From Sphagnum compactum (lineage: Eukaryota): 64,000 bases of DNA. Below are positions 2,890 to 52,948 of the stretch, piece after piece. Below the pieces are notes generated by a model that ran no database searches, was not told the DNA's origin, and saw only the letters and a list, made by a program, of their open reading frames with translations. Position numbers and translations under genes: made by a program. The stretch is from positions 930,001 to 994,000 of the forward strand of contig OZ234493.1 of NCBI GenBank assembly GCA_965153455.1, given 5' to 3'. How positions within the stretch are numbered: position 1 is the stretch's first letter; every line of letters begins with the position of its first letter.

Positions 2890-4331
2890 TTACAATATTA
2901 AAGCTCTGAAATGGATTAATGCACACCAAGGATGATACAAGTGTGTACATGTAGAAATCACAATGTCATTATGCGGGAATGCACATAGACAAACAACACA
3001 AGGCAAGATTTTCAAGAAATTGAGCTTGTCAACTTTAACATTAGGATTACATAAAGGATGGGGGTATAGGGATAATCCATCACCCTTCTTCATGAGAGCA
3101 ACATGTTGCTCCCCCAAAGAAGCATACTGCAACTCACAAAATACCCCCCTCTGTTCTAATTCCCTTAGCTCAATTTCCTTCACATCTCATTTAGCTCACA
3201 CTTTCTTACATTGAGCTTCATGTTTGATGTTTAAATTCCTTTAACATTTCTCTTGCATCCTCTAATCAAGTAGAACATTTGATTCCAACTTCAGTTGCCC
3301 CTGCATAATTGGTTTTGGTGACAAAGGAACTACATTACCCAAATTTGCAGGATCAATGGAATCCTTTGGCAAAGACTCTGAGGGTCTTTCAACACTTATG
3401 GGATTCAAGTTGCAAGCCAATTGTCGTTGAAGCTCATCAGCCTCCAAGGCTTTTTTTTTTTCCATCTTTTCAAGCAAAGATGTTTGCATTAACTCCATAA
3501 ACATCCAAACGGTGCATGCTTGATCAACAAGCCATTGTTTCTCCTTCATCACATGTTCAACTTGAAACTTAAATGCTTCAAGTTCCATTGACACGAGTTG
3601 CAACAATTGAGACACCTCACTTGCCAATCTCAAATTCCATTCCTTCAAAATCGATGGTCTTTCAATTGCACGCGATGTCTTAACTATCTCAGTCTTTGTT
3701 GCTTTTGTTATAGACTCACTTTCAAGGTGTGAGTCCCGCTTCCCATGCATTGATTTTAGTGCTTTCAACTCCTTCCTTTGTAGCTCCATCTTTTTTAACA
3801 ATTTGAAAAACTTGGAGTGTTAGTAGGTGTTAGTTTCCTTAGCAAGTGCCGCCCAACTAATGGGTGTCCCAAACTTCTCTACAATAATGCCAAGAACAAA
3901 CTCCTTTGTGATGAGCTTTGTGTAAGGCATCTCCATATTTCCATAACATAAGGCCCATATCTTTTCAACTTTTGTTTTGTTTTCAACTTGTCACGACATT
4001 TGGTGTATCAAAAACTCGACCAAGGAGTGCCCTTACCGAATACCTCCACAAGCTTTTCTTATGTAATGTTTCTTCTTGCCTTCAATTTATGGGGATTAGT
4101 ACCACTTCCACTCAAGCCTATCCTCATGAAATGACCAAAGTCTTTCTTTGGAGGAGGTTTTTTCAGCCTTTCCATTTTTTGATCTAGCTCCATTTTATTC
4201 TTTGCACTATTAAACCTATTAGATTTTGTGTCTAGGGTAATGTCATTGCTTTCAAAACCCTCCTCTTCTTCAAAATGATTTTCAATGTTTTTCGACTTCA
4301 TTTTTTCGAACCTCACTTTTGTCAAAAGCAA
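2890..4331 (-). pseudogene. Decayed gene: novel N-terminal domain + coiled coil + RING-H2-like (copy 1)
   Basis: Joins ORFs 4059-4331, 3262-3801 and 2890-3183 plus the intervening frames. Reads NPHK..IT*EKLVEVFGK..WALCYGNMEMPYTKLITKEFVLGIIVEKFGTPISWAALA, then an E/K/L-rich heptad region, then PCVVC..STCTHLYHPWC. The last two RING Cys are lost. Confidence 0.75.
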
Positions 4332-5995
4332 ACAAATTAACTCAAGTACTATGAACAGTTAGCAACATCACACAAAACCCAAAAAAATGTTAACTTGGAT
4401 GTGTGAGTATTTGCTATGAATCGTTGCTGTAGCTCTATAACCTTCACGTTGTAACAGATAAACATAATATGACAAACCAAGAAAACCCTAGGGGACGTGC
4501 TGGGCTAAGAGAGATGACCCTATTTTGATGGGCCTAGGAAACAAATTTGATGAAATCTAAAGTGTTGACACCTATCCAGATAGGTTGAGTGAGAAACCAT
4601 TTTGAGCTTATACCTCACATTTCTTGTTTCATGATGGGTCCCTAAAATAATATAGGCCAAAATCAATTTGGCACATTTATGAGTTAAGTGTCACTTATTT
4701 TTGTCGTGTTTAATCATGTGACCAACTAGATTTGAATAAAAAAAACTTTCATTTAAAACAATATTGGCTCAACCAGGACCATAGTTTAAATCAATAGACC
4801 AAACTAATTTTTAGCAAAAAATGTTATGTGTACATTATTATACAAGTTGTGTACTTTTAATATTGACCCTTTTGACTCCATCTATCTACACCATACCTTG
4901 CAAACACCCCATTGTTCCATTACAGATAGCAATAGGAGGCTTTGGGTATTCAAGTGGAAGCATTGACTGAGGAGAGGAAGGAGAAGGAAAATGTTTAGAC
5001 AAATTTGGAATTGGTGAATCTAAAGAGTGTTTTTATGTTTAATTCTGAAAAACTTAGAAAAAGAACAACATAGGTAAAAAAAGAGAAGTTGATGGAGGCA
5101 ATAGTGTTAAAAGAATCTGTAGTAGCTACAGGCAGTAATTGGAAACTGCAAATGAGCAAAAGAAGAGTCTGGACCCAGCTGGTGTGATGAAAATATAGGA
5201 TATGAACAGATGTTGTACTATTACATTTTGATGAAGAAAAAAAACAAGATGATGGATTCTGATGCAACATCTAAGGAATGGTGGGAAGTTACAGAGGAGT
5301 ATTTTGCAAAAGAGTTGGAGAAAAATCTGGCCCAACATAGAGCTGATGAAAGCACTATAAGAAATCATGGTTTTTTTAAATGTTCAACTTGACTAAAGTG
5401 TCCACATTGATCAAAAGGATGTTCGTCATGAAAGACACATGGTTCTTTTGGTTAGTGTTTTTGATTGAAGCAACCATTTTGACCAAGTGTTAAGTCATAC
5501 ATCCAATCAAGAAGAACAAATTTTTTAAATGGTCCATCAAAATGCCCACGGTTTAATCAAATCGGCCATACTAAATGGCCATGCTTAGTCAAATTGGCCA
5601 TATCAATTTGGTTAATTAACCTACTTATTACGCCTATTAAGGTACCTACCTACCTATTTTCCTAACACATACCCACCTATTTACTTACCATCTACTTACT
5701 AACTATTATTTACGTACTATTTACCAAAATTACCTATTTATCTACCTACCTACCTATATTTTTTATATATTTACTTATCTACTATCTACCTACATACCTA
5801 CCTATAGTTTACATAAGTAGGTATGAACATTTAAAAACATAAGTAGGTAGGCATGTATACCTACCTATCTACCTAGTTAGGTACCTACTAACCTACTTAT
5901 GAAAAAATTGAAGTTTAAATGTTGTTATACACATTGACAAAAAAATTCATGGATACATGTTAAATCCATTTGGTATCATACTGTTTTACAAAGTA

Positions 5996-6061
5996 GTGAG
6001 GTGGTTTGATGGCCAAGACATTGGTGTGGAACCAAGGAGACCAAGGTTCAATCCCCTTCAC
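5996..6061 (+). other. tRNA-derived pseudo-element (pol III A/B-box-like)
   Basis: Shows an acceptor-like stem GTGAGG/CTTCAC, an A-box-like TGGTTTGATGG, a TTGGT/ACCAA stem and a B-box-like GGTTCAATCCC. The geometry is not that of a functional tRNA. Confidence 0.55.
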
Positions 6062-10299: not shown

Positions 10300-12620
10300 T
10301 TGCCACAAATTGGCTAGTGACAAAAGTGCATTAACTATGATGTGTGGAAGAGATGAAGAACTTAACCAAGTGTAGCAACCTACTGAAGAATCACTATGGC
10401 TTGCACACACTATAGAGCTATGGACATGCATTGTCGATAATAAAAAACAAGCATCGAAAGGATTAAAGAAGACCACCAATGGCGTGTGATAGTGGTTTGT
10501 GCATAAGTAGTCAAAAATAAATCAAAACGAAAATGAAGACACCCATATGTCTCAATAACAAAGGGAATGCAGTAATTTCCTAATGTTTGATTGGTGTATG
10601 ATCATCTTTTCTCCTAAGGAGGCATCATTGTTGCATGTGCTGTCGTTGTTGATGTTTGTTGCACCATATTTATGTGAGTTGAATTAGTAATGACATCATC
10701 CATTAAAGTTTGAACATTGTCTTTGGTGATAAAGATATCCACTTGTCATTAAATGTGGTAAGGGAAAAGGTGGGAGACCTCCCTCTAAACATGTGTTCCA
10801 TTCTGTAAAACAATAAATGCAAGAGTATCCTGAAATGTGTCGTGGGTTGCTATATGTTCGCTTTTGTAGGGGCACCAAAGTAAATGGTTACCTAGATCGT
10901 CAATGGTATGACCACACTAACATTGTGAAAAATGGGCGATTATAGAATGTGGCAAACCATGACAAGTATGTAATTTTGTAAGAAAATGGGTTAGGGATAA
11001 ACGAAATACAAATGTGATAGGATAATTAATAACAAAATGCTTGCCCCTAGACTCGCACATGAGCGAAGACATGTTCGCACAATATTTGAAGGAGTGTTTA
11101 ATAAAAGTGAAGCAACTTTGTGTTCATGTAGGTGATTTGCCAAAATAGCTTGCAATTGGGGATAAAACTGAACCATTAGGCTCTCAAAAGGTGGGACTTA
11201 AGAGTAAACAACCTGGGGTAACATGGTTCGAGCATGTCATAATGCCATCTGGAATGGAAACGTGCCAGTCTCAACATGTGTTATTGCATCGAGAAGAATA
11301 ACGTGATCAACTTGTTGGAAATAAATGACAAATGCAAGAACGATTAGTGCCCAACACCCCAAGAATGTGGGGGTAATAGTTTGAACCACAAAAAAGAGGC
11401 CGAACTTGCCCGAAGAAGCAAGAAGAATGACTTGATAATGAGCTAAGTGACTAATAAAACGACCAAAAGATCATGCACCAAGTAACTTTTCCAACATAGT
11501 TATGGTATGGGTGTCGAACTCAACGTAATGTTGCAAAATCCATGGAAATGAAAACATTATATGAAACAAATAACTTGAGCACTGGGCATAACACAACAAG
11601 AACATTACAAAAGTCTTTTGAAGATGTGTAAGCATAGGGAGATTAAATATCGTCACAAAATCCTCATGAAGTGCCTTAGCCACAAATAATTCAACGAATG
11701 ATGTGGATCCCACCAATGCGCGCAAAATATGAAAACTCGAGTCAGGAGTAAAAAAGATAGGAAGAAGTGATATAAAATGGTCCAACCCCTGTGGAGACCA
11801 AACTACACATTTCATTAGTAGCACTAAAAGCCATAATGTTAATAAATCCTGTAACAATTGTAAAAACACAGGAACCACATCTGATGTAGGACCTACTATA
11901 TGTGTATCATTTGTTAAAGAAGGGAAAACACAAGTAGGGTGGGTTGTTATTGTAGGGCGAAAAATGTGAAGGTGAGCTAGAGTAAACAATGTTCCTTCCA
12001 ATGGGTCCCCTTGTTGTGTACCAAATTTTGACGAAATGACTATGACATCTCCATGTTGAAAAATTTGAAAAACATACACTAGGGATTGACGTGTGTAAAA
12101 ATGTTGAACAAATGGGAAAAGCTGATCTAAAAAATCAGGCAAAAATCATAATTCTTGAAAAGTGGCTGATTGTGAATCTGAATTAAAGGCATTACAGACA
12201 TCCATTTGTAGCACCACCCAATTTAGATGCAAATCTAACATCGCTTAAATGTCATGAACCATTGTTTCACACCCATCACGAATTGTTACACCAAACTGAT
12301 GAGGACTAAATTGCTTTGTGAAAATATCCTTAAATTAAATAGCAAGAGTGTGAGCAATTAGATGATAAGTCAATTCATTGATCACGATGAAATGTATGCA
12401 TTCGGATTACTTTTCCAACACTATGAATCAAAATGTAAAAAACAAACACAATACTGAAGGTGGAACATGACTTCGAACAATGTGCTCACATACTTTGAAA
12501 AAGCGGTCGAAAACAATCGCAAAATCATTAAAAAAAACACTTTGTTGCCAACCCAACCCAGGTACTACTTTATAATTATTCCATTTCAAAATCTCAACTT
12601 CTTTTATCATTGTTTTTATC
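10300..12620 (-). mobile_element. Degenerate non-LTR retrotransposon with RT, CCHC knuckle and restriction-like endonuclease (CRE-clade-like)
   Basis: Minus-strand translation across stops gives FSPHQFGV..DGCETMVH, LQMDVCNAFNS, GTQQGDPLEGTLF and FPSLTNDTHIVG (decayed xADD). It continues RSCASLGA, GLPH..C*CGHTIDDLGNHLLWC..E...HD and QVDI..D..IETYGCLH, an RLE-type C-terminus. Boundaries are approximate. Confidence 0.85.
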
Positions 12621-16368: not shown

Positions 16369-19300
16369 ATGAGAACGATTGGAGTTTTGAACGCGTGGTG
16401 GTGGGGGCTGGCTCTGCTAAGCCTGCTGGTGGTGGTGATTCAGTGCGGTGCAGTTATGGTGCCCATGAGCGATGACATCCTAGGTCTCATGGCGTTCAAG
16501 GCAGGTGTGCAGGACCCGCACGGTGTGTTAGAGTCGTGGCAAGAGGTTGATGCCAGTCCCTGTAACTGGACTGGCGTCGCCTGTGACGACGTGACTGGCA
16601 GGTAGGACTCTTTTTGTTCTCTCGAGTCTCTCTTTCGAAATACGAAGTTATATGAAGCGCCGGGTTAAAGACTTTCACTTTGCAGCGATTGTCAGCCTCC
16701 AGTAAGACTTAAATCATGAGGGTTGTTTCTTTTGTTTGCGAAGTTCGGTATAGGTGAATGGCAGGTCCAGGGGGTATTATGTTGTTTGAGGGCATCGGAA
16801 CGAGGGCGGTAGTTCAAGTTCCCAAGCCCCAAAACAACAGAATATCCCATGTGACTTGCCATTCACCTACTTAAAAACCTGACCTAACTTGAAATTGTGC
16901 AAGAAGGTTGTGTTTGGTAATGGGTGCCTCATCATCTGCGATGAAGGTTCTGCTTGTGAGGAACCTCCAAATACGAAGTTAAAAATAGGTCAGGTTTTTA
17001 AGGAATGCAAGATTGAACCTTCTCAGTGTATGTTGTCTGTCATTGCAAGAACGTGACCCAGCCCCATCTGATTGCAGGGTTACAGATCTCACTCTGGTAG
17101 GGCTATCATTGGGAGGTCAGATTGGAAGAGGATTTGTGAAGTTGGCAGAGCTTCAAACAGTGACCCTGGCATATAATAATTTCTCAGGAAGTATTGACAC
17201 TGAAGTTGCACAGCTGTTGATGCTGAGTACATTCAATGTGAGCAACAATGCATTGTCGGGTGCCATTCCTTCTTTTTTCACTAGTGGCAGTAGTGGGAGT
17301 CTCACAACTCTTGACCTGTCAAACAATCTCCTTTCTTGGGCTATGCCAGATGCCTTCTTCATCAATTGCCAGAATCTTGTCTTTCTTTCACTAGCTCACA
17401 ACATCCTCAATGGCTCCATTCCTTCATCTCTCAGTTCATGTGTTCAGCTCACGCATTTGAACCTTGCAGCAAATCAGTTGTCAGGTGATATTCCCGTGGG
17501 TATTGGACAGCTTTCAAAAATCAATAGTATTGACATGTCACAGAATTTTCTATCTGGACTTATCCCAGGAGAGATTGGATCCCTACAAAATCTAACAAGC
17601 CTCAGTCTCATGGGCAACAAGTTTACAGGCAGCATTCCTTCAGGACTCTTCTCTTGCAGTAGCTTGGTGGCTATTGACTTTAGTATGAATAGTTTGACAG
17701 GGACACTGCCAGTGCAGCTACAGAACTTGAGCTCTTTAACTCTCATCAATGCTGGCAGCAACATGTTATCAGGGAGTATTCCAACATGGCTTGGAAGTCT
17801 GAGCAGGTTACAAAGTTTAGACCTTTCAGAAAACCAGTTTTCAGGGTTTGTGCCAGCTTCACTTGGGCAGTTATATGTGCTCCAAGAGTTGGACCTTTCT
17901 GGGAACCTGCTTTCAGGTAGTATTCCTGTGGAGTTAGGTGCATGTACGCAGCTGAGGATTCTGGATTTAAGCCACAATAACCTGTCTGGTGATGTACCAT
18001 CCCAGCTTCTTGCCCCAAATATACAGTTCTTAGCACTCTCAGGAAATTCCCTGACAGGAAGCATTCCTAGTATAAGCTCAGGGAATTGTACCTTTCTGCA
18101 GTTTCTGGACATTTCTGGGAACAGATTGGAGGGACCCATACCAGGACAGCTTGTACAATGCTCCAATCTGGTGGCTGTAAACCTCTCTGCCAATTCACTT
18201 TCATTGCAGATTCCATGGGAGCTTGGCAGTCTGCCCTTTTTGGTGTATCTTGATCTGAGCAGGAATTTCATCAATGGAAGCATCCCACCGACTTTGGGCA
18301 ATGCTGCTCACCTAAATGTGCTTGACTTGCGTCAGAACATGCTCAGTGGTCCAATCCCATCAGAGATTGGGAACTGCAGTGCACTCCTTAACTTGTAATT
18401 CCTACTGCCTTCAACCAGATTTGTGACATATGCCATTTTCATTTAGCAGATAGGACTTGTTTTGGTTGTCTTGATTGTGAGCTTTGTAAGCATGAAGAAT
18501 ATAATGTTTCAGATCTTCTACATGAGGTGAGAAAGGTATCTCAATGGCTAGCTCTTGATTGGTTATAGAGTTTACATCAAGTGTTCAACTGCCTGCTTGA
18601 CTGTTGTGCTAAGTACAAATGGTAGAAGAGGGACAATTATGAAAAAATAGCTACAACAGAGTGTTGGATGCTTGAGGCTCTATTCACAAATTTCCAGTCT
18701 GACAAGTTGATTCTGGAGTCTGCTTAGTGTCTGTTTGAGAGACCAATTCCACTTTCTGATGATCAAATGTGACTTTTGAATGGCAGGAATCTGGCGATGA
18801 ACAGATTAAGTGGGCAGATCCCTGTGGACCTGACAAACCTCAGCTTGCTTGAGTTTCTTGATCTGTCTTCTAACAATCTGTCAGGGGAGATTCCACCAGG
18901 TTTTCAGTTGCTTAGGAGTTTGGTAATGGTCAATGTATCCAACAACCAGCTGAGTGGCCCTATTCCCACTCAAGGTGTCTTTGTCAATGCCAGTGCACCT
19001 GAGGTTTCAGGGAATGATGGTTTATGTGGTAAACTGGTTGGTGTGGCATGTCCCCCAGGCCCTTCAAAACCCATAGTGCTTAACCCAGGAGGACCCTCAT
19101 CAGGCAATCCAGTCACCCATGGGAAGGGGAGCAGAATTGTGTTAAGTATTTCAGCTATCATTGCCATCTCAGCAGCAGCAGTCATTGCAATTGGGGTTAT
19201 AGTAGTCACTTTGTTGAACATACGGGCACAGACACGGCCACAACACACTACAGTGGGCATAATGGAGAGTGTTCCACAGTCACCCCTTACAGAACATCTG

Positions 19301-36300: not shown

Positions 36301-39300
36301 TAGACTTTATTCCAAAGGATTGGAAGGAAATATAGGAGACATGGATTTAAAAAATAGTGAATTATTTAATGTTATTAATAAGACTTTGGCACTCAAAAAG
36401 TGAAACATTCATGTATTGAAGATGTCTTAGGATCCTATTATAGGTCTATGTTTCATTAATAAGACATTTCAAATTTCATAAATTCATCATTACCATCCAT
36501 TGTGGCACATATTAGTTGAAGTATTAAACATATATATCCAACATCCATTCATTAGCATCTCAAAATGTTCATTTCTCTTGAGGACACAAGACACATGATT
36601 AGACAAGGTGATAGGACTATGATTCATATTGTAGTATTATGAATGTACCCAAATCTTCAAATTACCCTTTTCATGTGATCCTAATCATGATTATGGGTGA
36701 ATGACATCAATCATATAAGCCCAACAATGACCAAGTAGTTCACAAACTAATTATGCATGGCCAAATTGCACACATGACTAAGTGACCAAAAGTAGGACAT
36801 AGTTACCAAATGTCCTAATGATGGATGTTAGGTTTCAGCATAATGTGAACCCAAAGTAGCATTATCTTTGGTAAAAACGGTATAAAAATTACACTATGAA
36901 TCTAGGCTTTTGTTAAAACTCAAACCAAAATTTACTTATTTTACTAAAATTTAAATTGCTACCCAAATTCTTATAGGATTTTATTATGATCTTTTGATTG
37001 GTAAAAATATCCAATAATCAAGTTGATGTGGCCAAATTGTCATTTGGCCGATATTGTCAACATAAAACATAATAATACAATTATGGCCAATTTGTTTTGT
37101 AATTATTATGGCCATATTATAATAACTACAACATAATATTAATCCAGTGACAATATGTTTTATGTTTTAATGACAATTTTCAGCATAATAAATTTTGGAC
37201 AAATTATAAAAATTTACGTAGAAATTTTTATAAAATCTTATTTTTAATTGTTAACCATATATATATAAATTTTTTTTCCAATAATATTTGTTGGTCATAG
37301 GTTGGTCATAGGTTGGTCAATTCTAAGTAAGTTGTAATACCTAGATAGGTAGATACATTGTACATAGTCATAGGATATAGTACTTAAGTACATTAATGTA
37401 CATGTAGTTGAATTTCATAGATTTGAATGTAACTCCTAGCCCTTTAGGTGTATTATAGGTCACAAGTGTAAAATGTCACAAGGGAAATTGAATCCTTCAC
37501 CTTCATGTGTGCACACGACCAAGTCCTTAATTAATTAACATTCCACACATTTTCACGTTGTGACAAATTTATAAAGATGTGGACATTTTGAATCCTCTTG
37601 AATATTCAAAAATTGAAATGAATTTTTTTCTCCCTCAATTTTTTTTTAAAAACCTTCATTTTCAAGATCAATAAAAAATCTAATCATTGAATTAAACATT
37701 ATTTATAAAGGTTTTCTCATCTTTGAGGAAAGCTTTTCTTGAGGTTCAATTGTGTTCACAAATTCAACTTGATGTTATTTCTTTAAGTCATATTTTGAAT
37801 AAAAGAAAAAATCATCTTATTCAATCTTTCAACGTGATTTTTGTGGGCCCAACTAAAGTTTAAATTGTGCATATAAACGTCATTTGGGCATTAAATGTTG
37901 GGATGTAGAAGTTAATAAAAATTAAATGATGGTGCATTCAATTTTTCAATTTTATAATCATGTGCACATTTTCACAAGTTAAGGTGCACTTACACAAAGT
38001 TTTCAATGTGCCCATGCACTTCAAAATATAACAACCTTTGATTTAATAAGTGCATCTTGCATTTTTATTATTTAATGTAATTTTACAATTAGTTGTAAAT
38101 ATTGAACTTATGAGTTCAACTAAGAGGATTCGTTCTAAATTAGTAAATTTAATTGTAAAGAAATATTTTATTAATTGCATAATGATCCATTTCCTATCGC
38201 TAATAGATCACAAATGTAAAAAAGTTATAATCTGGTTGTGAGAAAACACAAAAATGAAGTTATGTAATGGTACTCAAATAGTTGTATGGTAAGTTGCAAA
38301 TTAAGTGCAAATTAATTGCAATGGATATCAATAGATTTTGCCCATCGATAGATGAATGAAATGTCATGTTAAATTTACATTCGTTCAAAGGCTATTTGCA
38401 TGGGAAACCCACATGGACAACGTAGTTGTAACAAGTTGCACCTAGATTGCATGGAATGGTAGGTATTTCCAATAATATACAGTTCCATGTATAAATACAT
38501 TGCAAATGATGCAACTCAAGGTGTAGAAATACATGGAGTTGCAAATGATCATTAATACAATTCAAAAATCTAGTTGTAAGGCAAGTTGTAAGACCCCCCT
38601 TTTTCTCATAATGTGCATTATGTAGGAACCCTTCTCAATCCCTACATGGGTGAAAGCATACAAAAGTATGCCAAATGGTGATCCTTGTTGTCCCAATAAA
38701 AGTAGGCAAAAAGTAAATTTTGAATACCTAGCTAGGCATGAATAGTTAGGGGTTAGTAAGCTAGAAAAGGGGTAGGATGGTTTGGGTTGGGTTTGCCCAT
38801 TCATTGTAAAGGAGGAGGCTTTTGCTGTTTGCACTCGTGAATTTGCAACAAGGTTTTGTTATTGCCGACGCAACATTACAGCCCACTGATGTTGAAGCTT
38901 GAATTCCCACCCAAGAGGGGAGATCAAGGAGCAAAAAGTCATACCCAAAGGTGCCAAAGTCTTGCCTAGTACCATCCATTCAAGTGATTTACCTCCCCAG
39001 TACTCATCTTGCACCTAGTTTGTATTTTGGAATACTTTGTTATTTTGACTGCTTCAAATCAAGTTTGTTTCTTTTCTTTTTTTACTATTTTGAGTGTCTT
39101 GCTACATTCAATGCCTCAAGTTGATTTTAGTTTTCTTCTTGTTGTTTTGAGTGCCTTTACTACTTTTAGTCCCTCAGGTTTGTTCAATTACTACAATAGT
39201 TGCAAAGTTGTTTCTATTGTTCAGAGTGCCTCAAGGTTCAATTTGGTTGAAGTGCAAAATCTATTTGGTTAATTTGTTTAGGGTTTGAAGCATTTGCATG

Positions 39301-39384: not shown

Positions 39385-40955
39385 ATGGCTAATCTTTTGA
39401 CCAAAGCTAGGGTTATGTTTTTACCCTTGAGCCCCACTATTTTAGCATCCTTGAACCTTAGGTTCACTACAAAAGAATTAAATAAAATGGATAGAGCAAA
39501 ATTGGAGAGGGTTAGTCATATTTTTGGACGAGTAGATTAAAGCTTGGATGATTATCACCAAAGGCTCAAATTGAACAGTGTGGCTTTAGATCCACACAAA
39601 GATGTAAATTCTAGTCATGTTTCCAATGAAGAGCTTGAAAGTGTCTTTGGGAAAAGAAGGCAGAACAATTGGAAAGTGAAAGCACTACAACAAAAGGTGT
39701 CCCTGTACGCCAAGTGATTTCACTAATTGTAGTGTACAGGGACCAATGAAGAAGCAGTGAATTCACTGGTCTAGTGAATGGGGACTAGTGAACTTCATCC
39801 ACATTTTGTAATAATGAATTGAATGAAAATATATTTGCTACAAGTTGTTCTGCATTGTTGAAGCTTTATGAAGCTATTTATGTTCACTTGCCCCCTAATG
39901 GTGATTATTCAATAATATTTATGCGTGGCTAACTAGCCCAATGTAAAGGTGAAAAAGTGAACTATACTTTGTATGCTCATGATTGCATAGTGCAATAGAT
40001 GAAAAAAATGACCCGAACCCCCTTGGCCTCCATCAACAATTGTAGTTACCTAGTTCCAAATCAATAAGCTTGTGTCTGAGCTCAAGTTATAATGATTATA
40101 ATGTTGCACGTGAAGATGAAACACAATGTGTTTTTCCAAGGGAGGGGACTTCTGCATAGTTTTTTTCCCACACCAAGTTGCACTTATGAAGAAATTGTTG
40201 CGAGAAATGCAAGATAAGGAGGAAGAATTTAGTCCCAAAATGGCAACATTGGGAGAAAGGACAATCTCTAGCAGCATAAAGTTCAAAAGTTGTCTCACAA
40301 CCATGCTGACAGGGCTATGTCTGTTAAACAACAACAACAACAGTTGATTCATTTATAAGAGAAGTATAGGGATTTGAAGAAAGAGGTGGAAAACAAGGAG
40401 ATCAAAGTGCGTGCAGGTGAAGACTTAGGCATGTGTTTGTCTATCTTTGATGAGATGAAACTCTGTGTATGTAAAGTTATTACTTATTTGCAATATGTTG
40501 AAAAGGAATTAGAATTACATGGATTCTTTTTTAAGAAAGAATCCACAAAAGCAACTGTAATCCAGAAGGAACTACAAGTAGCCACCAAGGAGTTTCAGAA
40601 CTTTTAATTGGAACTTGAGGAGCTCCAATTTAGAGTTGAAAATAACAAAATATGGATTGCTGGTTTAATGTGTTAGATCCACCTTATGACTAGTGGAAAT
40701 GGGGTTACAAGTAAACCCCTTCCCATTGAAAACCTAGTCTCCTTGCCCTTAGGAAGACCCAGTTCTGTGACGATCACATCTTGTCCAATCTATGGCATGT
40801 CTTATCCCTATAACAACATAGTTGTTTCATCTTGTGGATGCACCTACGATCTATTTTGCCTTGGTATATATCTTCAAAGCAAACCTAGTGTTTGTGCTGG
40901 TCGCACATGTGGGAAAGCTTTGTCCATGGATTGGACGACAAGTGTGGGGTTTTAG
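39385..40955 (+). pseudogene. Decayed gene: novel N-terminal domain + coiled coil + RING-H2-like (copy 2), interrupted by a 134-bp CACTA-like MITE
   Basis: Reads DPHK..VSNEELESVFGK..LYEAIYVHLPPNGDYSIIFMRG*LAQCKGEKVNYTLYA. Coiled-coil ORFs lie at 40126-40607. The decayed RING reads CPIY..SSCGCTYDLFC..CAGRTC..DWTTSVGF. Confidence 0.7.
39683..39816. mobile_element. 134-bp CACTA-like MITE inside RING-gene copy 2
   Basis: The left end CACTACAACAAAAGGTG pairs imperfectly with the right end CACATTTTGTAATAATG. Flanks are AAG/AAT (near 3-bp TSD), and removing the insert restores the host reading frame. Confidence 0.7.
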
Positions 40956-41317: not shown

Positions 41318-41721
41318 GGGTGATAGCATGAAATAAAAAGCCAATTGTGCCAAGGTTAAAGTCATTTCTAAGGATTGCATTTTCCATGTGATAGTTTTTA
41401 TTGGTTTATATTACATTTTCACACAAATTTTCAAACAAAATATCAAATTTGAGGCCAAATATGATATATAACATTATAAAAACTCAATTTGTTTTACATA
41501 AAGCCTTAGATTATAATCAAATCTATAACTTTATTTTGAACCATGATTACAAACTCAAAATTATATTAGTGCTTAAAAATGTTTGAGTATCAAAATCTAT
41601 AAATGTATATGTATTTTTATTTTTTGAATGTTCTGAACATATGGATCCCTTTTTGTGGAATATATTATATAAAGTTCACAAAAATATTGAAATGTTTTGA
41701 TGAACATTTGATAATGAAAAA
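41318..41721 (+). mobile_element. Left part of a second GGGTGA-TIR element, cut by a CACTA-like insertion
   Basis: Collinear similarity to 60212-60606 stops abruptly at CACTATG (41722). Confidence 0.75.
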
Positions 41722-41954
41722 CACTATGTAAAAAAAGGGTGTTTTGCAACTAACCTTACAACTCAATTTTTGAGTAATAGAGGACACTTGCAACTTACTA
41801 TATTTATACGCTATGAATGCTAACGAACAAGTTGTATGAATTTTAGAGTTGCAATTCATCGTATATATAGTGCAACTCAATTGCAACTTAATCAAAGCAA
41901 CTTGTTTTCAACTACTATGCAATTCCATTATGACTACACACATGATGTCATTAA

Positions 41955-42256
41955 TGTTAACAAATAGGAGATTTAATCAAGTGCAAACATAAATTTTTAT
42001 TGAAAAGAAACTAAAATAAGATGCTCACAATATGGAACATAACATCAAGAACTCTTCAAGGTTCTTGTCACATGAAATGCACAAATTTCTGCAATGAAGA
42101 AAAGAGAGCCAAACCATCAACACTAAGGTATTTATCTAAAAGACCAAACCACAAATAACCAAACTATTATAAGTAAAGAAAGTAATTCAACATTGTGAAA
42201 GTAACCTAGTTATTTTCCTATTCTAGCAACTAATGAAACCTAACTAATTTTCAACA
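41955..42256 (-). repeat. 3' LTR of the copia element
   Basis: Reads TGTTAACAAATAGGAG...TTTTCAACA on + and abuts the PPT. Confidence 0.95.
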
Positions 42257-45200
42257 CTCCCCGTCAAGCTCAAATCCACTTCTAGTACACCAAGCATTTT
42301 TCTAAACTTCCTTAGCTTGTTTGTGCCTAAAGCCTTTGTGAAAATGTCAACAACTTGATCTTTAGTACTGACATGAATAAGGTTAATTTTATTTGCTAGA
42401 ACTTTTTCTCTAATAAAATGGCTGGCTTCATAAAAAATTCCACACTTCAATGTATGTTCTATGTACTTCAGTATGCGCCTCACTACATCCAAATGTGGCT
42501 CTCATGGTGTTTGCATGAATTGACTCACCATTCCAACTGCATAATTCAAATCTAGCCTTGTGATGGTCATGTAAATCAAACACCCCACTATGCACTTGTA
42601 CATAGTGGTATCCTCCACAAGGTCTCCTTCATCTGCACTTAACTTCATATTTTGCTCCAATAGAATTGAAATGCGTTTGCACCCCGTCATCCCATATTCG
42701 GACAATTTGTTCAAGGCATATTGCCTTTGTAGTAACCATATCCCTTTAGGGGACTTGATTATTTCAATGCCAAGGAAGTAACGTAACTTTCCTAAATCTT
42801 TCATTTCAAACTTTTGCTTCAAAAGCTTCTTCAAATCAAAGATGTCTACATCATTATCTCCTATGATAATCAAGTCATCAACATAGACGACTATGACTAC
42901 AATCCCACAATCTTTCTGTTTCACATATAGTGAAAAATCTGCATTGGATGTTTGAAATCCACTTGTGACAAGATACTGACCTTTCTTGTTTGACCAAGCT
43001 TTAGGTACTTGCGTCAAGCCGTACAAAGCTTTCTTCAACCTACAAACCAAATTAGGATGTGTTTAGTCCACATAACCTGGTGGTTGTTCCTTTTTCCTGT
43101 AAATCTCCATGAAGAAAAACATTCTTTACATCCATTTGATGTAAAGACCATCCTTTTGCTATTGCCATAGCAGTGATTGCTCTTACACTTGTCATTTTGC
43201 AACTAGACTATAGGTCTCCTCATAGTCTATGCCATAAGTTTGGGCATAACCTTTGGGAACCAATCTTGCTTTGTATCTGCCCACAAATCCATCTGCATTA
43301 TGCTTGACCTTGTACACCCATTTGCACCCAATTACTTTCTTGTCCTTTGGTATAGCTACCAATTCCCAAGTAGCATTAGCATCCAACGCCGCCATCTCTT
43401 CATCCATGGCATTATTCCATTTAGGGTTTCCAACCGCTTGTTCAAAACAAGTGGGTTCAACCTCCTGTATAACTCTCACCATGTATGCGTAATGATGAGC
43501 TACAAAGCCATCATATGTGAGTATTTGTATAGGGTACTTGACTTGTGTGGATCTTTATATTCCATTGTTGTGGTCAGGTGTTTACAAAACTTTCTTGGCC
43601 ATCCGAGCTTCGGGAGTAGTAACTGAAGGGATTCTTGATTTTTCACCCACACTCTTCTCTGAATCACTTGACTCATCATCTAAATGAGGATTTTTAGAAG
43701 ATGTTTGAGAACTCCCATGTATAATGTTTGAAGATCTTAATCTTCCTTTCCATGGAGTGCTACTGGACCCATTAATTGAAGACTCTTGTGGTCCACTAAT
43801 CAATTGTGATTCTTGTTCCACATTTGATGAAACATCACCATTTCTAGCCTCTCCATCTTTTGTTATCTTCAGTGGTGAGTATCAGCGAACCATCTCATCA
43901 AACACAACATTTCTACTCACTTGCAACTTCCGAGTGGAAAGGTTGAAACATTTATATCCTTTTTGTTCTAAGGAATATCCAATGAAGATACATTTCTCAG
44001 CTTTTGGATCTAGTTTTGATTTCTTCTTATCAGGAACATGCACGTATGCAATGCAACCAAACACTTTGAGGTGTGAAACATCTGGTTTTTTGCCTGTGAA
44101 TTTTTCTTCGGATGTCATGCCATGAACTGCTATTGTGGGTGTTCGATACATGATATATACTCGGTTGCTACCGCTTCAACCCAAAAGTAATTTGGCAAAT
44201 TTTTCTCATTCAACATGGCACGTGTTATTTATGTAATGTGCCTGTTTTTCCTTTCAGCAACTCCATTCTGTTGTGAGGAATAACTACATGGGTACTTCCT
44301 TTGAATTTCATGCTCCTTTAAGTACTCATTGTATTCATTTGAAAAATACTCTCCCCCTCCATCGGACCTTAGGCATTTGATGGTCACACCCTTCTCCTTC
44401 TCCACCATTGCTTTGAAATTCAAAAAATGTTGAAACATTTCACCTTTGTGTTTCATGAAGTAGACCCACACCTTCCTTGTGCGGTCATCAATGAAACTCA
44501 CGTAGTACTTGCATCCTCCAATGGATTCTGTCTTCATAGTCCACACATCCAAGTGGATCATTTCCAAAGGTTTGGAACTTACGTGAGTTGTTTGAATTGG
44601 GAATTGATGCCTTGCTTGCTTCCCCAATTGGCATGTTTCACAAACTTTTGACATCATTTCTTCTGTTCCAAATTTGGGAAGACCTCCAACAAGATTTTGT
44701 TTCTCCATCAACTTAAGACGGTGGAGATTAACATAGCCAACCCGCTTGTGCCAAATTCCAATGTCTCTAGCTCCTTTTCCATGTGTGAATAACATGGAAT
44801 ACACCTTAGGCATGTTCACATCCAAGGTGAACATTCGTCCATTCCTTTCCCCTTTTGCAATCAATTTGCCTTGGTTCTTCATGTCTTCCACAAACATCCA
44901 TTAGGGTTGAATGTCACCTGTAAACCTTGTTCCACCATCTGGCCTACGGAGACCAAATTTTTTGTTATAATTAGAACATGAAGTACATCTTTCAAGTACT
45001 TTGTTTGCCCATCTTGCATGGACAATGGCACCTTGCCAATTTGTGTGATGGGATGCGTAATGTCATCACCAGTTTCCACAAACCTTGGTGTTTTCAAATC
45101 CCTTGTGTCTCTAAACCATTATCCATGACTAGTCATGTGGTTTAAAGCTCCAGAATCCACATACCAGACATTGTTATCTGATACACCTCCTATCATTGAA

Positions 45201-46170
45201 TTTGCCATGTGCTGCATCACAAACAGTTGCTCATCACCTTGATTGCTAGTTGAGGCATAATTCCCTTGTTGTAGTTTTCCATTTCGTGCATCATGCTCCT
45301 TTTGATAGCAGTTCTTTGCCATGTGCCTAGGTTTCCCGCAATAGTAGCAATTTGAGTCGCTATTTGGTTGTTAACCTCGATGACTTCCACCACAACCTCC
45401 ACGACTTCCTCTTCTTCTAAAGTTTCCTCATCCAACTCCATGAAACTGACCTTCATGTTGATGATATCCACCATGCGAGCTTTCATGTCGACCTCGAAAT
45501 GAGGTTTTACCACCTTTACCTCTACCTCTATTAGTATTTGAGTAGAAAACACTTTCTTGTGATCCTCCATTGGATGAAGTACTAACAATTCTCATATCTT
45601 CACTTATAAGTAAGGTTATTAAATCTTTGAAATCGAAAAATGTTTCTCAAACTGTAATTAAAGTACGGAATTAGCTATAGTCTTTTCCAAGTCCATTCAA
45701 GGTCATGGCCACCAAATCTTTATCATCTACAGGGGCTCCTATAGATGTAAGAGCATCTGCAAGGTTTTTCACCTTTGTAGAATAGTGACTGATGTTCATC
45801 TTGTTTTTTTATAGATTATGTAACTCTTACTTGAGCTGCATTTTGCGAGCTTATGTATTGGTACTATACATCTTCACCAATGTATCCCAAGCTTGCTTGG
45901 GTGATTTTGCATCTTGAATATGCACAATCATGGAATCGGACAAACTCATAGAAAGCCAATACAAGACTTTCTTTGCTTTTTCATGCTAAGTTTTATTGGC
46001 TTGAATTTGTTGTTGTGTGGGGTTTTCTAGGAGAGGAGGTTCTTTCTCATCACCAGTCATGAACTCCCAATAACCTTTCCCCATTAAAAATTCATAATCT
46101 CAAATTTCCACACTTGGAAATTGTTCTTGTCTAATTTCTCAATTGTAATTTGAAAAAGACTGTTTGCCAT
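42244..46170 (-). pseudogene. Copia gag-pol polyprotein, broken by stops and frameshifts
   Basis: Start ATG at 46170. Motifs seen: gag zinc knuckle CYYCGKPRHMAKNC, protease WYVDSGA, integrase WHKRVG..CETC, HLDVW, FIDD, LRSDGGGEY, QQNGVAERKNR, RT GCKWVYKVK, LKKALYGL, YVDDL, and the RNase H C-terminus HFIREKV..DIFTKAL. The sequence is split across more than 8 ORFs. Confidence 0.95.
42257..42270 (-). other. Polypurine tract of the copia element
   Basis: Minus strand AGCTTGACGGGGAG lies directly before the TGTTG of the 3' LTR. Confidence 0.8.
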
Positions 46171-47393
46171 CTCTCAACACAACACTCAATGTTGTCTTGG
46201 GGTTTCACAAATGATTTTATTTCCTTCCTTGGGTTCCTAAGATTAGGCTTAGGGTTTTTTTTCCTTAGGTTTCTAGGATTAGGGTTAAGGTTAGGGTCGA
46301 ACAAGATGGACCTTGCATATCTATGTATGTTTTGAGAATTATACGAAAATTTATACTATACGTATATGTACATATTTTGTATGGTATTAAGTACATGATT
46401 ACATACCAAACTTTTGTATGAAGGTCTTGATAATGTATTTGCGCTTCCCAATCTTCAAACTCCTTCCTTCAAGTTCTCCCAAGTTTTATTTGCTCCACTT
46501 CAAAAATTTGTTTTGATGTCTTTTCAATGTAAACTTTTGTCACAACAACTTTGTAGAACTATACCGCTCACATATGATCTTGGATCGATCTGAAATTTTT
46601 GTGAAACATGAAAAACTATGTCTTTTACTCATTTAATAATTTGAGTAAAATTTCAAAATTTCAACTCATTTAATTTCATAAAATGAGAGATCGTGCTACT
46701 TTCTTGAAATCACCTCAAACTAAAGACCTGAACACAAAGTGACTTACAACTCATTCACAACAACTTCAATCTCCTTGAGATTTGAGGAGACACATCAAAT
46801 ATATGTCTTCTATATCTGTTCAAAATTTCAATTCTATCGATGATGATCACAAAGAGTTATCACTTTCAAAAGAAACTGACTTCAAAATTCAGGCTGAAAC
46901 TTTAGATACTTGGATCTCTCTTCATACATATCCAAATGACATGAAATTTCTCTCACATATATAGTCTTTTATGATATATAAGATCCCAAAGCTGCAGATC
47001 TAAAAATGTTCAACAAATGAGATATGACCAAGAAACCAGATCTAGCACAGAGTTTTCAAAAACTCATAACTCTCACAAGACATATCCTTTTCTTTTGAAA
47101 ATTTGAGAATAGAAGCGTATTATAGTCTTCTATAATCTCTATAAGTTTCACTTCAAGATATTTTCACAGTACATTTAGATCTAAATTTAAATATTTGACC
47201 TACACAACCCTTGATATGTTGATCTCCTCTCAGCTCTTTTCTTTTCCTTTCTTTCTTTTCACATTCTTTCCTTTCCTCGTTTCTTTTTTGTAGTTAACAA
47301 ACTCCTATGATATTACTAGAAAGTTTCAAGCTCTAGTTCTAGAGACTTTCTAGCTCTAAATCTCTTTCAACCTTCTCACCAAACAACCTAAAT

Positions 47394-47403
47394 TCTGATA
47401 CCA
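47394..47403 (-). promoter_or_regulatory. Primer-binding site (tRNA-iMet type)
   Basis: Minus strand reads TGGTATCAGA immediately after the 5' LTR, matching the canonical TGGTATCAGAGC initiator-Met PBS of plant LTR elements. Confidence 0.9.
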
Positions 47404-47694
47404 TGTTAACAAATAGGAGATCTAATCAAGTGCAAACATAAATCTTTATTAAAAAGAAACTAAAACACGATGCTCACAACATGGAACATAACATCAAGAA
47501 CTCCTCAAGGTTCTTGTCACATGAAATACACAAACTTGTGTAATGAAGAAAAAGAGCCAAACCATCAACACCAAGGTATTTAATTTTATTAAAAGACCAA
47601 ACCAAAAATAACCAAACTAATATAAGTAAAGAAAGTAATTCATCCTATTCTAGTAATTAATGAAACCTAACTAGTTGAACTTGAAGTCTCAACA
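47404..47694 (-). repeat. 5' LTR of the copia element
   Basis: Reads TGTTAACAAATAGGAG...TCTCAACA on +, is homologous to 41955-42256, and abuts the PBS. Confidence 0.95.
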
Positions 47695-48049
47695 ATTAAT
47701 TGTCATCCATCTATTCAAATCTAACACATGACATTATGAAGATTTTTGGACATAATTTTTTTCTTCAAAATATTGATTTCCATTATCCATTATGATTGTT
47801 AATAATGGTTTGAGAATGTGACACATGGCACAATAAAAAGATTGGCACATGGCATATTAATTATATTTTGGAAAAAAAAAATTAATTAATTTAAGTAGCT
47901 AAGTAAGTTGTACTTAACCATAGGTTGGTAGGTTTTAAGGCCTACTATTTACTTACCTAGGTAAGTAAGAAGGTAAGAAAGCATAAGACTAAATGCACTA
48001 AAGAATAGCCATGAATTTTAATTTGTTTGAATTTCCAACAACAATACGT

Positions 48050-48869: not shown

Positions 48870-49810
48870 AAAATTTCATTGAAGGAAATTTAAGGAAATT
48901 TTGAAATATAAATTTGTAATAGTGTGCATGTTCAATACACCTAACTATTATTCATATGTAAATTGGATTTTAGTTTACAACATATCAAATAATGATACGT
49001 AATTAATATTTTTGTGAAATTTTAATGTTTATTAATCTTTATAGACATGATATCTCAATATTTTTTAAAAATTGCAATAAAATTTCATTAAACATTAAAC
49101 TACATGTAAATCCTATTTGTGCAAATGAATGCTTATATATGATGCAAATATTTTTTGTGCACCTAATATTAAAATTTAATTTCAAAATAAATTTAAGGAA
49201 ATTTTGAAATATGAGTTTGTAATAATGTAAGTTCAAATATGTAATATATTATTTCTTTGTAAATCAAATGTTAATTTACAAAAAATCAAGAAATGATAAA
49301 TTATCCATAATTTTGTGGAAGTTTAATGTTTATTCATTTTTATACGTATGAATATATTTTTTAAATTGCAATAAACATTCATTAATTATTAAGATACACG
49401 TAAATGTTTTTTGTATACATGATTGATAACATGTCTGATGAATTTTTTTGTGCATATAAATATTACACTTTAATTTGAAAATAAATTTTAAATAAATCTT
49501 GAAATATAAGTCAACTTAATAATGTGTATGTTCACTACATGCATAATATCATAATTTCTATGTAAATTCAATTTTAGTTTACAACATATCAAGTAAGGAT
49601 ATTTTAAAAATATTTTTTTGGAATATGTTCAATACATGTGTGATTTATTATTTCCATGTAGATTCAATTTTAATTTACAACATATCAAGTAAAGATATTT
49701 AAGTAATTTTTTTGGAATATGTTCAATACATGTGTAATTTATTATTTCCATGTAGATTCAATTTTAGTTTACAACATATCATGTAATGATACATAATAAT
49801 ATTTTTTAGA
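48870..49810. repeat. AT-rich local duplications (~300-bp and ~95-bp units)
   Basis: AAATTTAAGGAAATTTTGAAATAT recurs at about 48887, 49189 and 49483. The block at 49621-49710 is repeated at about 49714-49790. Confidence 0.7.
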
Positions 49811-50619
49811 ATTTTAATTTTAATTCTTATTTTTGCTATTAGTTCCAATAAATTTTTCATTTATTAAAATTCTTTATTATTTATTTATGACTAAATTATA
49901 ATAATGTTTAAAATAATAAGTAAAAAAAAAAATTATCATATAATTTCAGAAATGATAAAAATGACCTAGAAGACAAGCAAATATAAGAGCATCAAATGAG
50001 ATGTAAAGTCTTCAATTTATCCAAGTTATTATAAAGTTGATACAATTTAAGAACATCAAATGATAAAGGAAGGTTTGGGACTTCTAGAGGGCTTCAAATG
50101 AATAGAAAAGGTTGAAGATTTAGAAATTACAAAACATTTATAGATTTGACAAAGGCGACTTGAAGCTCAAAAAAGTTTCAAAACCAACATAACTAAAAAG
50201 AACTTCAAGACTTTGGCTTTGTAGTCATGTTAACTCCAACAAAAAATCAAAACATGTGCCAAATGTTGAAACAACATAGCTGAAAGAAACATGTTTGACC
50301 ATGCACAAGTCACAAATCATGGACATAGGCGCAACAAATTTGGACCAAATGAGACCACACCTCAATATGACATAGTAGCAAGTTTGCACAATTCAACAAG
50401 ACATTACAAAAAATGTAAGAAAATAAAGCATGTGCCATTTCTAGGTTAAACAACAACTACATACGCTTACAAGTATAATTATTTTTTATTCAACTAATAA
50501 AAGAAAAATGTGTGGGGCTAGTTGTCAAAATTGACCTAATGAAGTTATTTGAAGGCTTTTAGCATTTCTAATACCTTGCACCTTTTTCAATGACACATAG
50601 ATCAACCACAAGCTTTAAC

Positions 50620-51455
50620 AGTCCGAATGAAGCACACTAGTCCTCCTAAAACACTTCCTCACAACTAGCCCCCTTGCATTTTCTTGAATACATTGTGAGT
50701 GCCACCAAACACCATGGATGATATGTGTGACAACACAAAGTGGTACAAATATCATAATAGTAAAATTCTTCACCACAAACTAAACAAGGTTGAACATTGA
50801 TTGTATTGATGGCATATTGAGATGGTGTAGATGGCTTAAGTTGTTGTAGTGGCTCAAAATAATGGCTTGCCCCTGATTTCATTCGAACAAGTTGTTCAAC
50901 GAGCATGGTTATAAGGTCTTGGGCAACCTTCAAGTTCAGCATAGAAGAAACTAGTGCTTCCTCATAGTCAACAACATTAAAATCACATAAAAGGTAATCA
51001 ACTTTTGTTGATTTTAACTTCAAAATGCATTGTTGCAATTTTAAAAAATTTCAATCCTAATTCATTGTTGTAATTCCTCAATCCTAGCTTGTGCAACATT
51101 CAGATTAAGGACTATTTCATCATTTGTGTTTTCATCAACACACAAGACTTGAGAAACCACAAGTCCACCAATAGGTTCACATGAAGATAAGGTTTTATCA
51201 AGATCTACCCTCACCTTGTCAAGAACACTTTTTACTGCACAATGAATCACCTCTCTATTGTTTACATGTAGGTGAGCCCTCCTTTGTGTTTTCTTTTCCT
51301 TTGCAACTTGCCTCGTAATTTGTAGAGTGTTGTGCTTCTCATGTGCAACAAGTGCATAAGCAGCGCAATTCAGTTGAATTCTAGAATTTTTGACTAGTAA
51401 TTCATGCACAAATTCTAGGTTTATAGTGTCATTGAAAACTTTGTGTTTTTCATAT
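50620..51455 (-). pseudogene. Decayed gene: partial N-terminal domain + coiled coil + RING-H2-like (copy 3)
   Basis: ORFs 51062-51508 (NDTINLEFVHELLVKNSRIQLNCAAYA) and 50646-51038 carry an intact ligand set PCLVC..LCCHTYHPWC..KCKGASC, followed by *ED*CASFG. Confidence 0.78.
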
Positions 51456-51971
51456 GGGTGAAAGCACGATAAGGTGATACAAAATCGACAGAGATAATGA
51501 AAGTCCATTTTACTTTTTAAAGGGCCAAAATGGGCAAGTTAGTTCAAATCGAAAGAAGAGGGAACAGTGGCCACGTGATATTAGTGGATGTCACTATACT
51601 CATCTATGCTAGTCTACGGGCTGGTCTTGGGCCAATCCTTGTCTCTCACACCTTTCTTGGCTTGAAGGTGATGGTAGTCATAGTTTTGCTAAAAAGGAGT
51701 TCACACAAAAGTATAAGATGTATCATCTTAGTTCGAACCCAAAACAAATTAGAATGCCTAGAAACTACACCAAGGAAGAAATCATAACGCTTTTTGGTCT
51801 TGTAGCGAACAAAAATGGGCACCGCTACACTAGCTATGTGGACCCAAAGCTTAAAACAAAAATTGAGAACCTTACATGTTAGCTAGAAAAGTCATCACCT
51901 TAGGAATGGTAGGAGGTTTAGTTTGTGAGGAGAATGGGAAGCAGATGAACTAAGTTGCTTACGCAAAATGA

Positions 51972-52948
51972 ATGAATCGAAAGCAATTTCGACAATGTCA
52001 TTTAAAAGATCCGGATTTTTTTGAGGATCAAAACACTTACAAGTTTGAGCAAGAGGAGGTTTCAAATGATGACATAGAAAAACTAAAAGATCCTCGACAG
52101 GTGAAGGGTTCGTTTTTTTCGCAATTACAAAGGTACTTCCTCTTTGTTCAAAAACTGGTTGTGTTAACAGAAGAGGCCTTGGCCATCAAGGAGCAAGAAA
52201 AGAAGAAGGTGGTTAAGGCAAATATTCTCGCTCAAGGCAAAAGGGAGTACATGAACACGTTGTTAACAAAAGCTATAACAAAGTTGGAGATCCTAGTTTC
52301 TACATTTCAAAAAGAAAAAACCATTGTGGTTTCAAACCAATTTGACAACATTGTAGTTACTTTTTTTTTAGGGTTTTTCAATCCTACAATCCATGCCCTA
52401 TGTAGGCAAGTTGATGTTCAACGAGGTGTCATAGAACCGTTTAAGAATTTGGCAAATGAAGGAAAAAGTGCATTTTCAAAAGTGCACAAGGAGAGATGTT
52501 GATTTTTTTGCTTCACTTGCTAAGTTGCAAGAACAAGTTTTGATTTTCAATTGTCATAATGTGCAATTAAAGATCTAATGAGTTGAACTCAAAGGGGTTC
52601 ATTTTGGAGTGCCACTGCAACCTTATGTTGAGTTGCAAACCACAACAAAGTTTTAAAGAAAGATGTGGCTACCCATAGAACATTGTGTTTTATGTGGTTT
52701 AGGATTTGCTCCTATGTGGGTAGTTAGGATGTCTTCTTGCAAATATGTGTACCAGGATTAGTGTTCTACATACCACTTTGGTATGTCTATTAAGTGTGTT
52801 GTCAAGGATTGTGAGGCAAAAATGCATGAAGCGTGGTGGGGCTATGTTGGATTGATGAAACTAGGAGGGGTTGAAGGGTTTGACATCTCGAAGATTGAGG
52901 CAAGAAAAGGTTGGCAACCCCAAAAAACAGTCAAAGGTGTGTTCTAGC
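51972..52948 (+). pseudogene. Decayed gene: coiled coil + RING-H2-like (copy 4)
   Basis: The 176-aa coiled-coil-like ORF 51972-52502 is followed by an unannotated frame at about 52663-52860. It reads MWLPIEHCVLCGLGFAPMWVVRMSSCKYVYQD*CSTYHFGMSIKCVVKDCEAKMHEAWWGYVG, with the same spacing as the other copies. Confidence 0.7.

Follow-up and report, generated by a model that had tools for sequence, protein, structure and literature searches.

A 64,000-nucleotide stretch of the Sphagnum compactum genome (contig OZ234493.1, positions 930,001 to 994,000, hereafter the window and numbered from its first letter) holds four broken copies, L1 to L4, of a gene family that encodes a coiled coil followed by a variant of the RING-H2 finger. 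We consider these copies to be probably the relics of an old, lineage-specific and intronless host family of RING E3-like genes that evolves by birth and death. No transposon frame surrounds them, and they belong to a family with its own architecture, carry the traces of past selection and have all decayed. An intact member is predicted to join an N-terminal alpha/beta domain, a long antiparallel helical hairpin and a C-terminal RING-H2-type finger with eight zinc ligands. It would act as a single-subunit ubiquitin ligase, the finger recruiting a charged E2 enzyme and the N-terminal domain picking the target, and the protein may act in the nucleus, to judge from a basic stretch that follows the N-terminal domain. 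Turnover of the family through duplication and loss would have left in the window one dead copy per deep subfamily.

The strict form of the family signature, C-x2-C-x13-C-x-H-x-Y-H-P-W-C, occurs twice in the window against a mean of 0.0 in 50 shuffles, which rules against chance occurrence, and the four loci are real family members. We read the signature from stop-to-stop open reading frames (ORFs) and three-frame translations at all four loci. L1 (minus strand, 2923-3000) reads CVVC-x13-C-T-H-L-YHPWC and keeps zinc ligands 1-6 only, whereas L3 (minus strand, 50661-50786) keeps all eight and reads CLVC-x13-C-C-H-T-YHPWC-x10-C-x4-C, followed by x7, a TAG that replaces the family tryptophan, and x2-S-x-G. 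In L2 (plus strand, 40761-40952) and L4 (plus strand, 52660-52866), the entire finger lies in a single frame with some ligands lost, as CPIY...CGCTYDLFC...C-x4-C-x7-W-x2-S-x-G in L2 and CVLC-x14-CKYVYQD*C-x10-C-x4-C-x7-W in L4, where a TAG falls within the YH-x-W-C core. A search of 165 family proteins against the window gave matches at these four places only. At the protein level, L1 matched L3 with an E-value of 3.7e-8 and L3 matched L2 at 7.9e-4 and L4 at just 0.38; mutual identity of the four copies is 23-36%, and blastn among them found no nucleotide similarity at E<=1e-10. The initial annotation of this DNA had described four loci sharing a signature, lacking obvious DNA similarity and all broken by stops or frameshifts. 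Each of these points held, with the signature strict in L1 and L3, decayed in L2 and L4, and all four copies broken, but the extents had to be revised: L1 has only six ligands, L4 starts at about 51625 and not 51972, L3 reaches about 51640 and not 51455, and the recognizable part of L2 starts at 39553 and not 39385.

Extents were taken from a profile map and from tblastn to the nearest long relatives, which are named here by P numbers. Multiple stops interrupt the reading frame of every window copy, and in each the frame changes at least once. L1, a pseudogene of the P0004/P0006/P0043-like subfamily, occupies 2905-4358 on the minus strand (profile map to 4190, ORF to 4358), with the N-terminal domain at about 3829-4190, a coiled-coil ORF at 3262-3819 and the first six zinc ligands at the positions given above. 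Alignment to P0172 and P0043 by tblastn revealed a frame change near 3939-3978 and in-frame stops, which lie at 3822, 3264, 3243, 3198, 3189, 4061 and 4010. Every blastn match of L1 to related loci terminates at 2905-2907, indicating that its 3' end is gone. L2 (39553-40955, plus strand; profile map, translations and tblastn) is P0032/P0113-like and the most decayed copy, with a piece of the N-terminal domain at 39553-39693, a coiled-coil ORF at 40359-40607, stops at 40605 and 40674, and a degenerate finger whose 3' part, C-x4-C-x7-W-x2-S-x-G, is intact. A small dispersed repeat (39683-39823, no strand assigned) separates its N-terminal piece from the remaining gene and resembles, at 71-74% in blastn, sequences in the related loci L030, L039, L051/52 and L059/60 that lie away from the RING genes there.

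L3, a P0003/P0153-like pseudogene, covers 50616-51640 on the minus strand according to the profile map and tblastn, with an approximate 5' limit. Its finger (50622-50786) has the TAG at the conserved tryptophan, a frameshift lies near 51050-51062, and remnants of the N-terminal domain are found in an ORF at 51062-51538. L4, a P0020/P0023-like pseudogene mapped in the same way to 51625-52947 on the plus strand, retains an N-terminal domain (51625-51873), a coiled coil (52074-52490) and the finger (52660-52866), with two frame changes and conserved tryptophan codons turned into stops; aligned by tblastn, residues 57-485 of P0023 are spread over three frames of L4. As L4 begins near 51625 and L3 reaches about 51640, their 5' ends abut head to head. 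Across the copies, five in-frame stops stand at conserved tryptophans (TGG to TAA, TGA or TAG; 51951, 51969, 52759, 50639 and 4010), all reachable by G-to-A changes, and C>T or G>A accounts for 7 of the 10 differences seen in X5, an independent DNA run from this species. Both observations are compatible with decay of methylated DNA.

Among 1.84 billion protein representatives, a profile built from the finger pieces of the four copies, with stops translated as X, matched 432 at E<=1e-3, 99 of them at E<=1e-10, a set that is narrow and specific for a RING-like profile. Intact members have 400-630 amino acids, and in the 150 best matches 94 are under 200 amino acids and 15 have at least 390; numerous short "proteins" lack some ligands and resemble pseudogene fragments that gene calling picked up. 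All eight ligands are retained, in the order C-C-C-H-H-C-C-C, by 101 of these 150, with x2, x13/14, x1, x2, x2 and x10 as the commonest spacings. The last ligand pair of these complete matches is C-x4-C in 85, C-x2-C in 9, C-x3-C in 6 and C-x5-C in 1, and ligand 4 is a cysteine in 19. The C-x4-C pair, which the initial annotation had picked out as unusual, is a family trait, and it departs from the canonical C-x2-C.

We aligned 18 long members for their architecture, and P0023, P0025, P0044, P0049, P0085, P0091, P0095, P0131, P0088 and P0121 have a common plan. A conserved N-terminal region, about 120-140 residues long and with motifs such as F-x-E-K-Y-G-L, F-G-P, N-G-x-R-Y and N-W-A-x-Y-A-E-W-T, is followed by a basic stretch, a helical part of about 160 residues and the finger. 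No Pfam model reached its cut-off in 10 long members, and the 10 clusters that we looked up bear "hypothetical protein" as their sole annotation. A word-indexed protein search, which is limited by shared words and length, found 0 matches to L3 at E<=0.01 among 73 candidates and no other domain partner for the N-terminal domain; it returned 5 proteins for the 18-member profile and 7 for the P0023 N-terminal domain, all from the same unnamed family. The literature text searched, including passages of PMC6118397, does not mention the family, although supplements might list such genes. With no name, Pfam family or paper found for it, this is a new family of a familiar kind, in agreement with the earlier description of an uncharacterized coiled-coil and RING-H2-variant family. 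For genomic context, we scanned JGI metagenome contigs with a subfamily pattern, which yielded 79 loci in 38 distinct groups (490 kb). One of these, L014, holds a whole ORF of 492 codons that spans profile positions 8-418 with no intron, so that the gene is intronless where it is intact, as had been supposed from the broken copies.

The AF2 model of P0023, based on 150 aligned rows, has a mean predicted local distance difference test (pLDDT) value of 79.9, with blocks spanning residues 41-170, 231-380 and 411-470 above 90. Three parts are modeled with confidence, namely residues ~40-180, a helical hairpin and the finger at ~400-480. Helices 226-304 and 311-384 are predicted to form an antiparallel hairpin within one chain, and the finger (block pLDDT 82-96 at 401-470 and 81 at 471-480) shows two short strands and a helix. 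A self-association prediction with two copies of residues 220-485 scored 0.00, which gives no verdict. Folded alone, the N-terminal domain of the intact L014 ORF reached a pLDDT of 91.6 and a predicted template modeling score of 0.85. The models point to a compact alpha/beta domain that matches no solved fold found, which does not prove a new fold. Fold searches with the whole P0023 model retrieved coiled coils only, and searches with the N-terminal domain had a best E-value of 1.9 with Foldseek against the PDB and 0.82 against BFVD, a best Z of 3.2 in the VIA structure search (0 of 48,161 chains at Z>=5) and no sequence match in the PDB at E<=10 with phmmer.

Sequence comparisons indicate that the family probably encodes ubiquitin ligases. 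A finger-only profile placed the RING-H2 E3s RLIM, RNF126, RNF24 and RNF13 first in the PDB (E 0.008-0.02), aligned ligand to ligand with the C-x-H-x2-H-x2-C spacing kept and with C-P-V-C of RNF126 opposite the family C-x4-C. Among 150 members scanned, zf-RING_2 matched 47 at E<=0.01 (best 6.2e-7) and other RING models 4-23 each. Several points weigh against an E3 function. Among the 10 long members, zf-RING_2 scores at most 17.5 bits where the cut-off is 27.3; the family also departs from the canon in its last ligand pair, and its finger reaches only weak E-values in the PDB. The window finger pieces likewise score 19.4 and 18.8 bits with the RING model, under the Pfam cut-off. Because the Pfam and PDB values are all weak, we use "RING-H2 variant" as the most fitting label, without regarding it as proven. 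The finger could instead be a structural or a chromatin- or nucleic-acid-binding zinc module, PHD-like or other, a reading that is compatible with any origin of the genes and that would account for the C-x4-C pair in 85 of 101 complete matches, the cysteine at ligand 4 in 19 of 101, the sub-cut-off RING scores and the few PHD fingers among the weak PDB matches. We find this doubtful, as the PHD-like zf-HC5HC2H model matched only 3 of the 150 members against 47 for zf-RING_2, and the top PDB matches are RING-H2 E3s with ligands in register.

Each window copy is closer to outside proteins than to the other window copies: the nearest outside identity is 67% for L1 (to P0004), 83% for L3 (to P0153), 55% for L4 (to P0020) and 37-45% for L2 (to P0032/P0113/P0068). 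In a tree of 93 rows the four copies are placed apart, and the approximately unbiased (AU) test rejects them as one clade (log-likelihood difference 137.9, p 2.8e-65). The tree has few columns and omits rows without a match to the signature pattern or with fewer than 40 residues before the finger, hence P0003, P0004 and P0153. Each copy represents a different one of four deep subfamilies. The comparison of nonsynonymous to synonymous rates (dN/dS) that had been suggested for the family was run and gave 0.11-0.40 for L1 against 32 high-scoring segment pairs from related loci, where the synonymous distance (dS) was computable; dS ranged from 0.74 to saturated. The value for L1 was 0.28 in frame versus 0.67 and 1.08 in wrong frames, and for the open copies L014 and L021 it was 0.24 versus 2.46 and 1.22. 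The low in-frame values relative to the wrong frames indicate that the lineages split while their genes still worked and that the copies died afterwards.

The initial annotation had placed the copies among terminal inverted repeat (TIR) and CACTA remnants and proposed a high-copy mobile family spread by transposons. Under that proposal, a DNA transposon or some other element would have carried and spread the gene as an accessory ORF, of the VANC or Kaonashi-ULP type, and the window would hold four dead insertions, which is suggested by the fact that all window copies are dead and lie in repeat-rich DNA, that the related loci are mostly dead as well, and that L2 is flanked by an inverted pair (38562-38614 and 41721-41773, 53 nucleotides, 79%). 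Our results make this unlikely. No transposase domain was found in 60 window ORFs (9 + 51), where we detected only a leucine-rich repeat (LRR) receptor kinase and copia parts, so that the reported TIR/CACTA remnants are not supported. The 46 flanking ORFs of at least 140 amino acids around the 38 related loci encode xylanase-inhibitor-type aspartyl proteases, P450, peptidase M16 and LRR proteins and a few retroelement domains, and no DNA transposase; only ORFs of at least 85 or at least 140 amino acids were scanned, and badly decayed transposases could escape. The inverted-repeat scan of the window found no enclosing pair around L1, L3 or L4, and the pair around L2, the sole good pair in the scan, was rejected as element termini because it belongs to a small separate repeat split by a copia element. 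Elsewhere this repeat lies 2.2-2.7 kb from RING genes, at varying distance and without collinearity.

Comparison of the related loci likewise revealed no non-coding element sequence common to the copies. For 14 long metagenome loci, the coding region is matched by up to 13-15 groups and the flanks by only 1-3, so that what many of the 38 loci have in common does not extend beyond the coding region. In pairs with 85-96% identity, collinearity runs across the entire shared contig (for example L004/L002 over ~10 kb and L018/L042 over ~16 kb); such pairs represent one region as found in related genomes or subgenomes and are not copies of an element. In pairs at 77-83%, the flanks are common too. 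A scan of IMG/VR with the subfamily alignment gave 18 pattern matches and 0 confirmed relatives. Together with the AU rejection of a single clade and the descent of the four copies from four deep lineages, the coding-only similarity and the collinear pairs speak against a high-copy mobile family. Independent sequencing of DNA from this species bears out the L3/L4 sequence, and contig word depth, which is not copy number, was close between L3/L4 and their flank (16.4 versus 10.5 in run X1, 8.1 versus 4.7 in X5); by this measure L3 and L4 were not recently amplified. One poly(A) RNA run labeled as the same species gave 0 matching reads in about 12% of its data, which the tool does not count as a test of expression. 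The initial annotation had named a few syntenic, intron-containing host genes free of transposon termini as an outcome that would speak against its proposal; we found no association with transposon termini, but the family proved large and intronless.

Two other origins have to be weighed against a turnover of host genes. If a few expressed intronless source genes had been reverse-transcribed often, with most copies dead on arrival, the copies would be intronless and dispersed, old paralogues would have only a transcript-sized part in common, and dN/dS would take values of 0.1-0.4 as the mix expected when part of each path is neutral, all of which we observed. No A-rich tail was found within 300 bp downstream of L2, L3 or L4, which is weak counter-evidence for old copies in AT-rich DNA; with dS up to saturation and AT-rich surroundings, poly(A) and target-site duplication marks are expected to be lost. 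The lack of introns is uninformative here because the intact parent is itself intronless. Retrocopying nevertheless appears rather improbable to us, since the 77-83% pairs share their flanks and three subfamilies lie within 13.5 kb, two of them head to head, which better matches a gene cluster than random insertion. Without the copia element, L2, L3 and L4 lie within 7.8 kb, and the group resembles what would remain of an old gene cluster more than a set of transposon insertions. Clustering is not special to the window, as L059 (2738-3228 and 8902-9367) and L060 (3539-4029 and 9703-10168) each have two same-strand copies within 4-6 kb, and likewise L073 (8222-9641 and 12132-12601) and L074. 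An origin from viral DNA that had integrated, such as that of a giant virus or polinton-like element carrying RING genes, is hardly credible. By language-model features, L3 and P0049 come nearest to clusters of small viral RING proteins (scores 0.92-0.90 for L3, 0.82 for P0049), but these share only generic RING families with recognition values below the mark of the tool; moreover, IMG/VR held no relatives, the best BFVD match of the N-terminal domain had an E-value of 0.82, and the neighboring genes are plant genes.

The reading as a host family by birth and death has its own difficulties. For a host family, a very large share of the copies is dead, namely all four in the window, and among the 38 metagenome loci only L014 has a whole ORF; those of L021 and L035 are open as far as the contigs reach, and the remaining motif-holding ORFs have 34-186 codons. 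Decay of this kind, intronlessness and a repeat-rich setting also fit a selfish or retroposed family, and old copies would be expected to have lost terminal repeats or poly(A) tails anyway. L014, L021 and L035 differ in G+C content from the dead loci (44% for the L014 contig and 44-45% for L021 and L035, against 31-37% in the other loci checked), indicating that the intact copies come from another organism than the dead ones. Upstream of the intact gene, L014 carries ~130-nucleotide tandem units at 1500-1870 with telomere-like GGGTTTAGGGTTT. A more ambitious version of the host-family reading, which we regard as rather unlikely, is that these genes are a plant counterpart of animal TRIM-like restriction factors, a set of nuclear E3s whose N-terminal domain, with a new fold, would recognize fast-evolving transposon or viral proteins; in that case an arms race would have left behind the mass of dead copies and the deep subfamilies. 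Bolder still is the idea that the gene itself is selfish and spreads by a route without known transposon marks.

Among known systems, the finger is most readily compared with single-subunit RING-H2 E3s (zf-RING_2, PF13639; RLIM, RNF126, RNF24, RNF13, Arkadia/RNF165), with which it shares the C-C-C-H-H-C-C-C order, the C-x2-C-x13/14-C-x-H-x2-H-x2-C-x10-C spacing, weak but consistent profile matches, and predicted short strands followed by a helix after ligand 6. Unlike these E3s, the family ends in C-x4-C and not C-x2-C, followed by a conserved W-x2-S-x-G, has a cysteine at ligand 4 in a minority of members and sub-cut-off Pfam scores in its long members, and adds an N-terminal domain and a hairpin. 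Like TRIM-type and plant F-box/RING families, it combines a RING and a coiled coil with a separate putative target-binding domain and has many paralogues, clusters and many pseudogenes; such a pattern is established for those families (see also PMC3030570, PMC2657112). However, no sequence relation to them was found, the hairpin is predicted within one chain, and the domain order is reversed relative to TRIM proteins, with the RING at the C terminus and the target domain at the N terminus. No B-box appeared in Pfam scans of the 10 long members or of 150 members. VANC21 of VANDAL21 is an anti-silencing protein carried by a Mutator-like element, and its chain 9lnk_A ranked second for the N-terminal domain (117 of 136 residues, Z 3.0, root mean square deviation 4.2). 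We rejected kinship as noise-level, as its Z is tied with unrelated chains, there is no PDB sequence match and no transposon surrounds the genes.

These results add to the plant RING repertoire an unnamed family with an unmatched N-terminal domain and a non-canonical last ligand pair, and remove the claim of a transposon-carried E3 ligase as unsupported. The finding is a moderate one, a new family of a familiar kind that is present in the window only as relics. If the genes were indeed defense or conflict-driven ligases, their many dated pseudogenes would constitute a record of gene birth and death in a plant lineage.

Elsewhere in the window, a plant-type LRR receptor kinase gene at 16989-20242 on the plus strand comprises two ORFs (469 and 489 amino acids) with LRRNT_2, many LRRs and a protein kinase domain; it looks intact and sits in the GC-richest part (0.45). 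The Ty1/copia retrotransposon, at 41954-47696 on the minus strand, contains RVT_2, integrase and gag-pre-integrase pieces and has long terminal repeats (41954-42190 and 47403-47642) that are ~93% alike; it inserted into the small repeat, whose halves are at 41721-41953 and 47697-47934. In two runs, contig word depth over the L3 finger core (50647-50767) is ~2.5x that of the adjoining sequence, and contigs break at 50690-50729 with an alternative continuation; the raised depth and the breaks show that a near-identical short stretch exists elsewhere in the genome. The L3/L4 pair is bordered by tandem and dispersed AT-rich repeats at 48946-49844 and 53396-55255, with units of ~95-300 nucleotides on one side and, on the other, a 115-nucleotide segment (53396-53510) that recurs from 54977, with 41-nucleotide spacing. 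The end of a dispersed repeat at 1-195 is found at 74-83% in at least 13 listed loci, including L036, L057, L059, L060, L062, L073 and L074. A further repeat at 10553-12203, whose 224-amino-acid ORF (11471-12145, minus strand) has no Pfam family, is shared at 74-75% over 1.66 kb with L057, L062 and L063, and in L062 it lies immediately upstream of the RING gene on the same strand.

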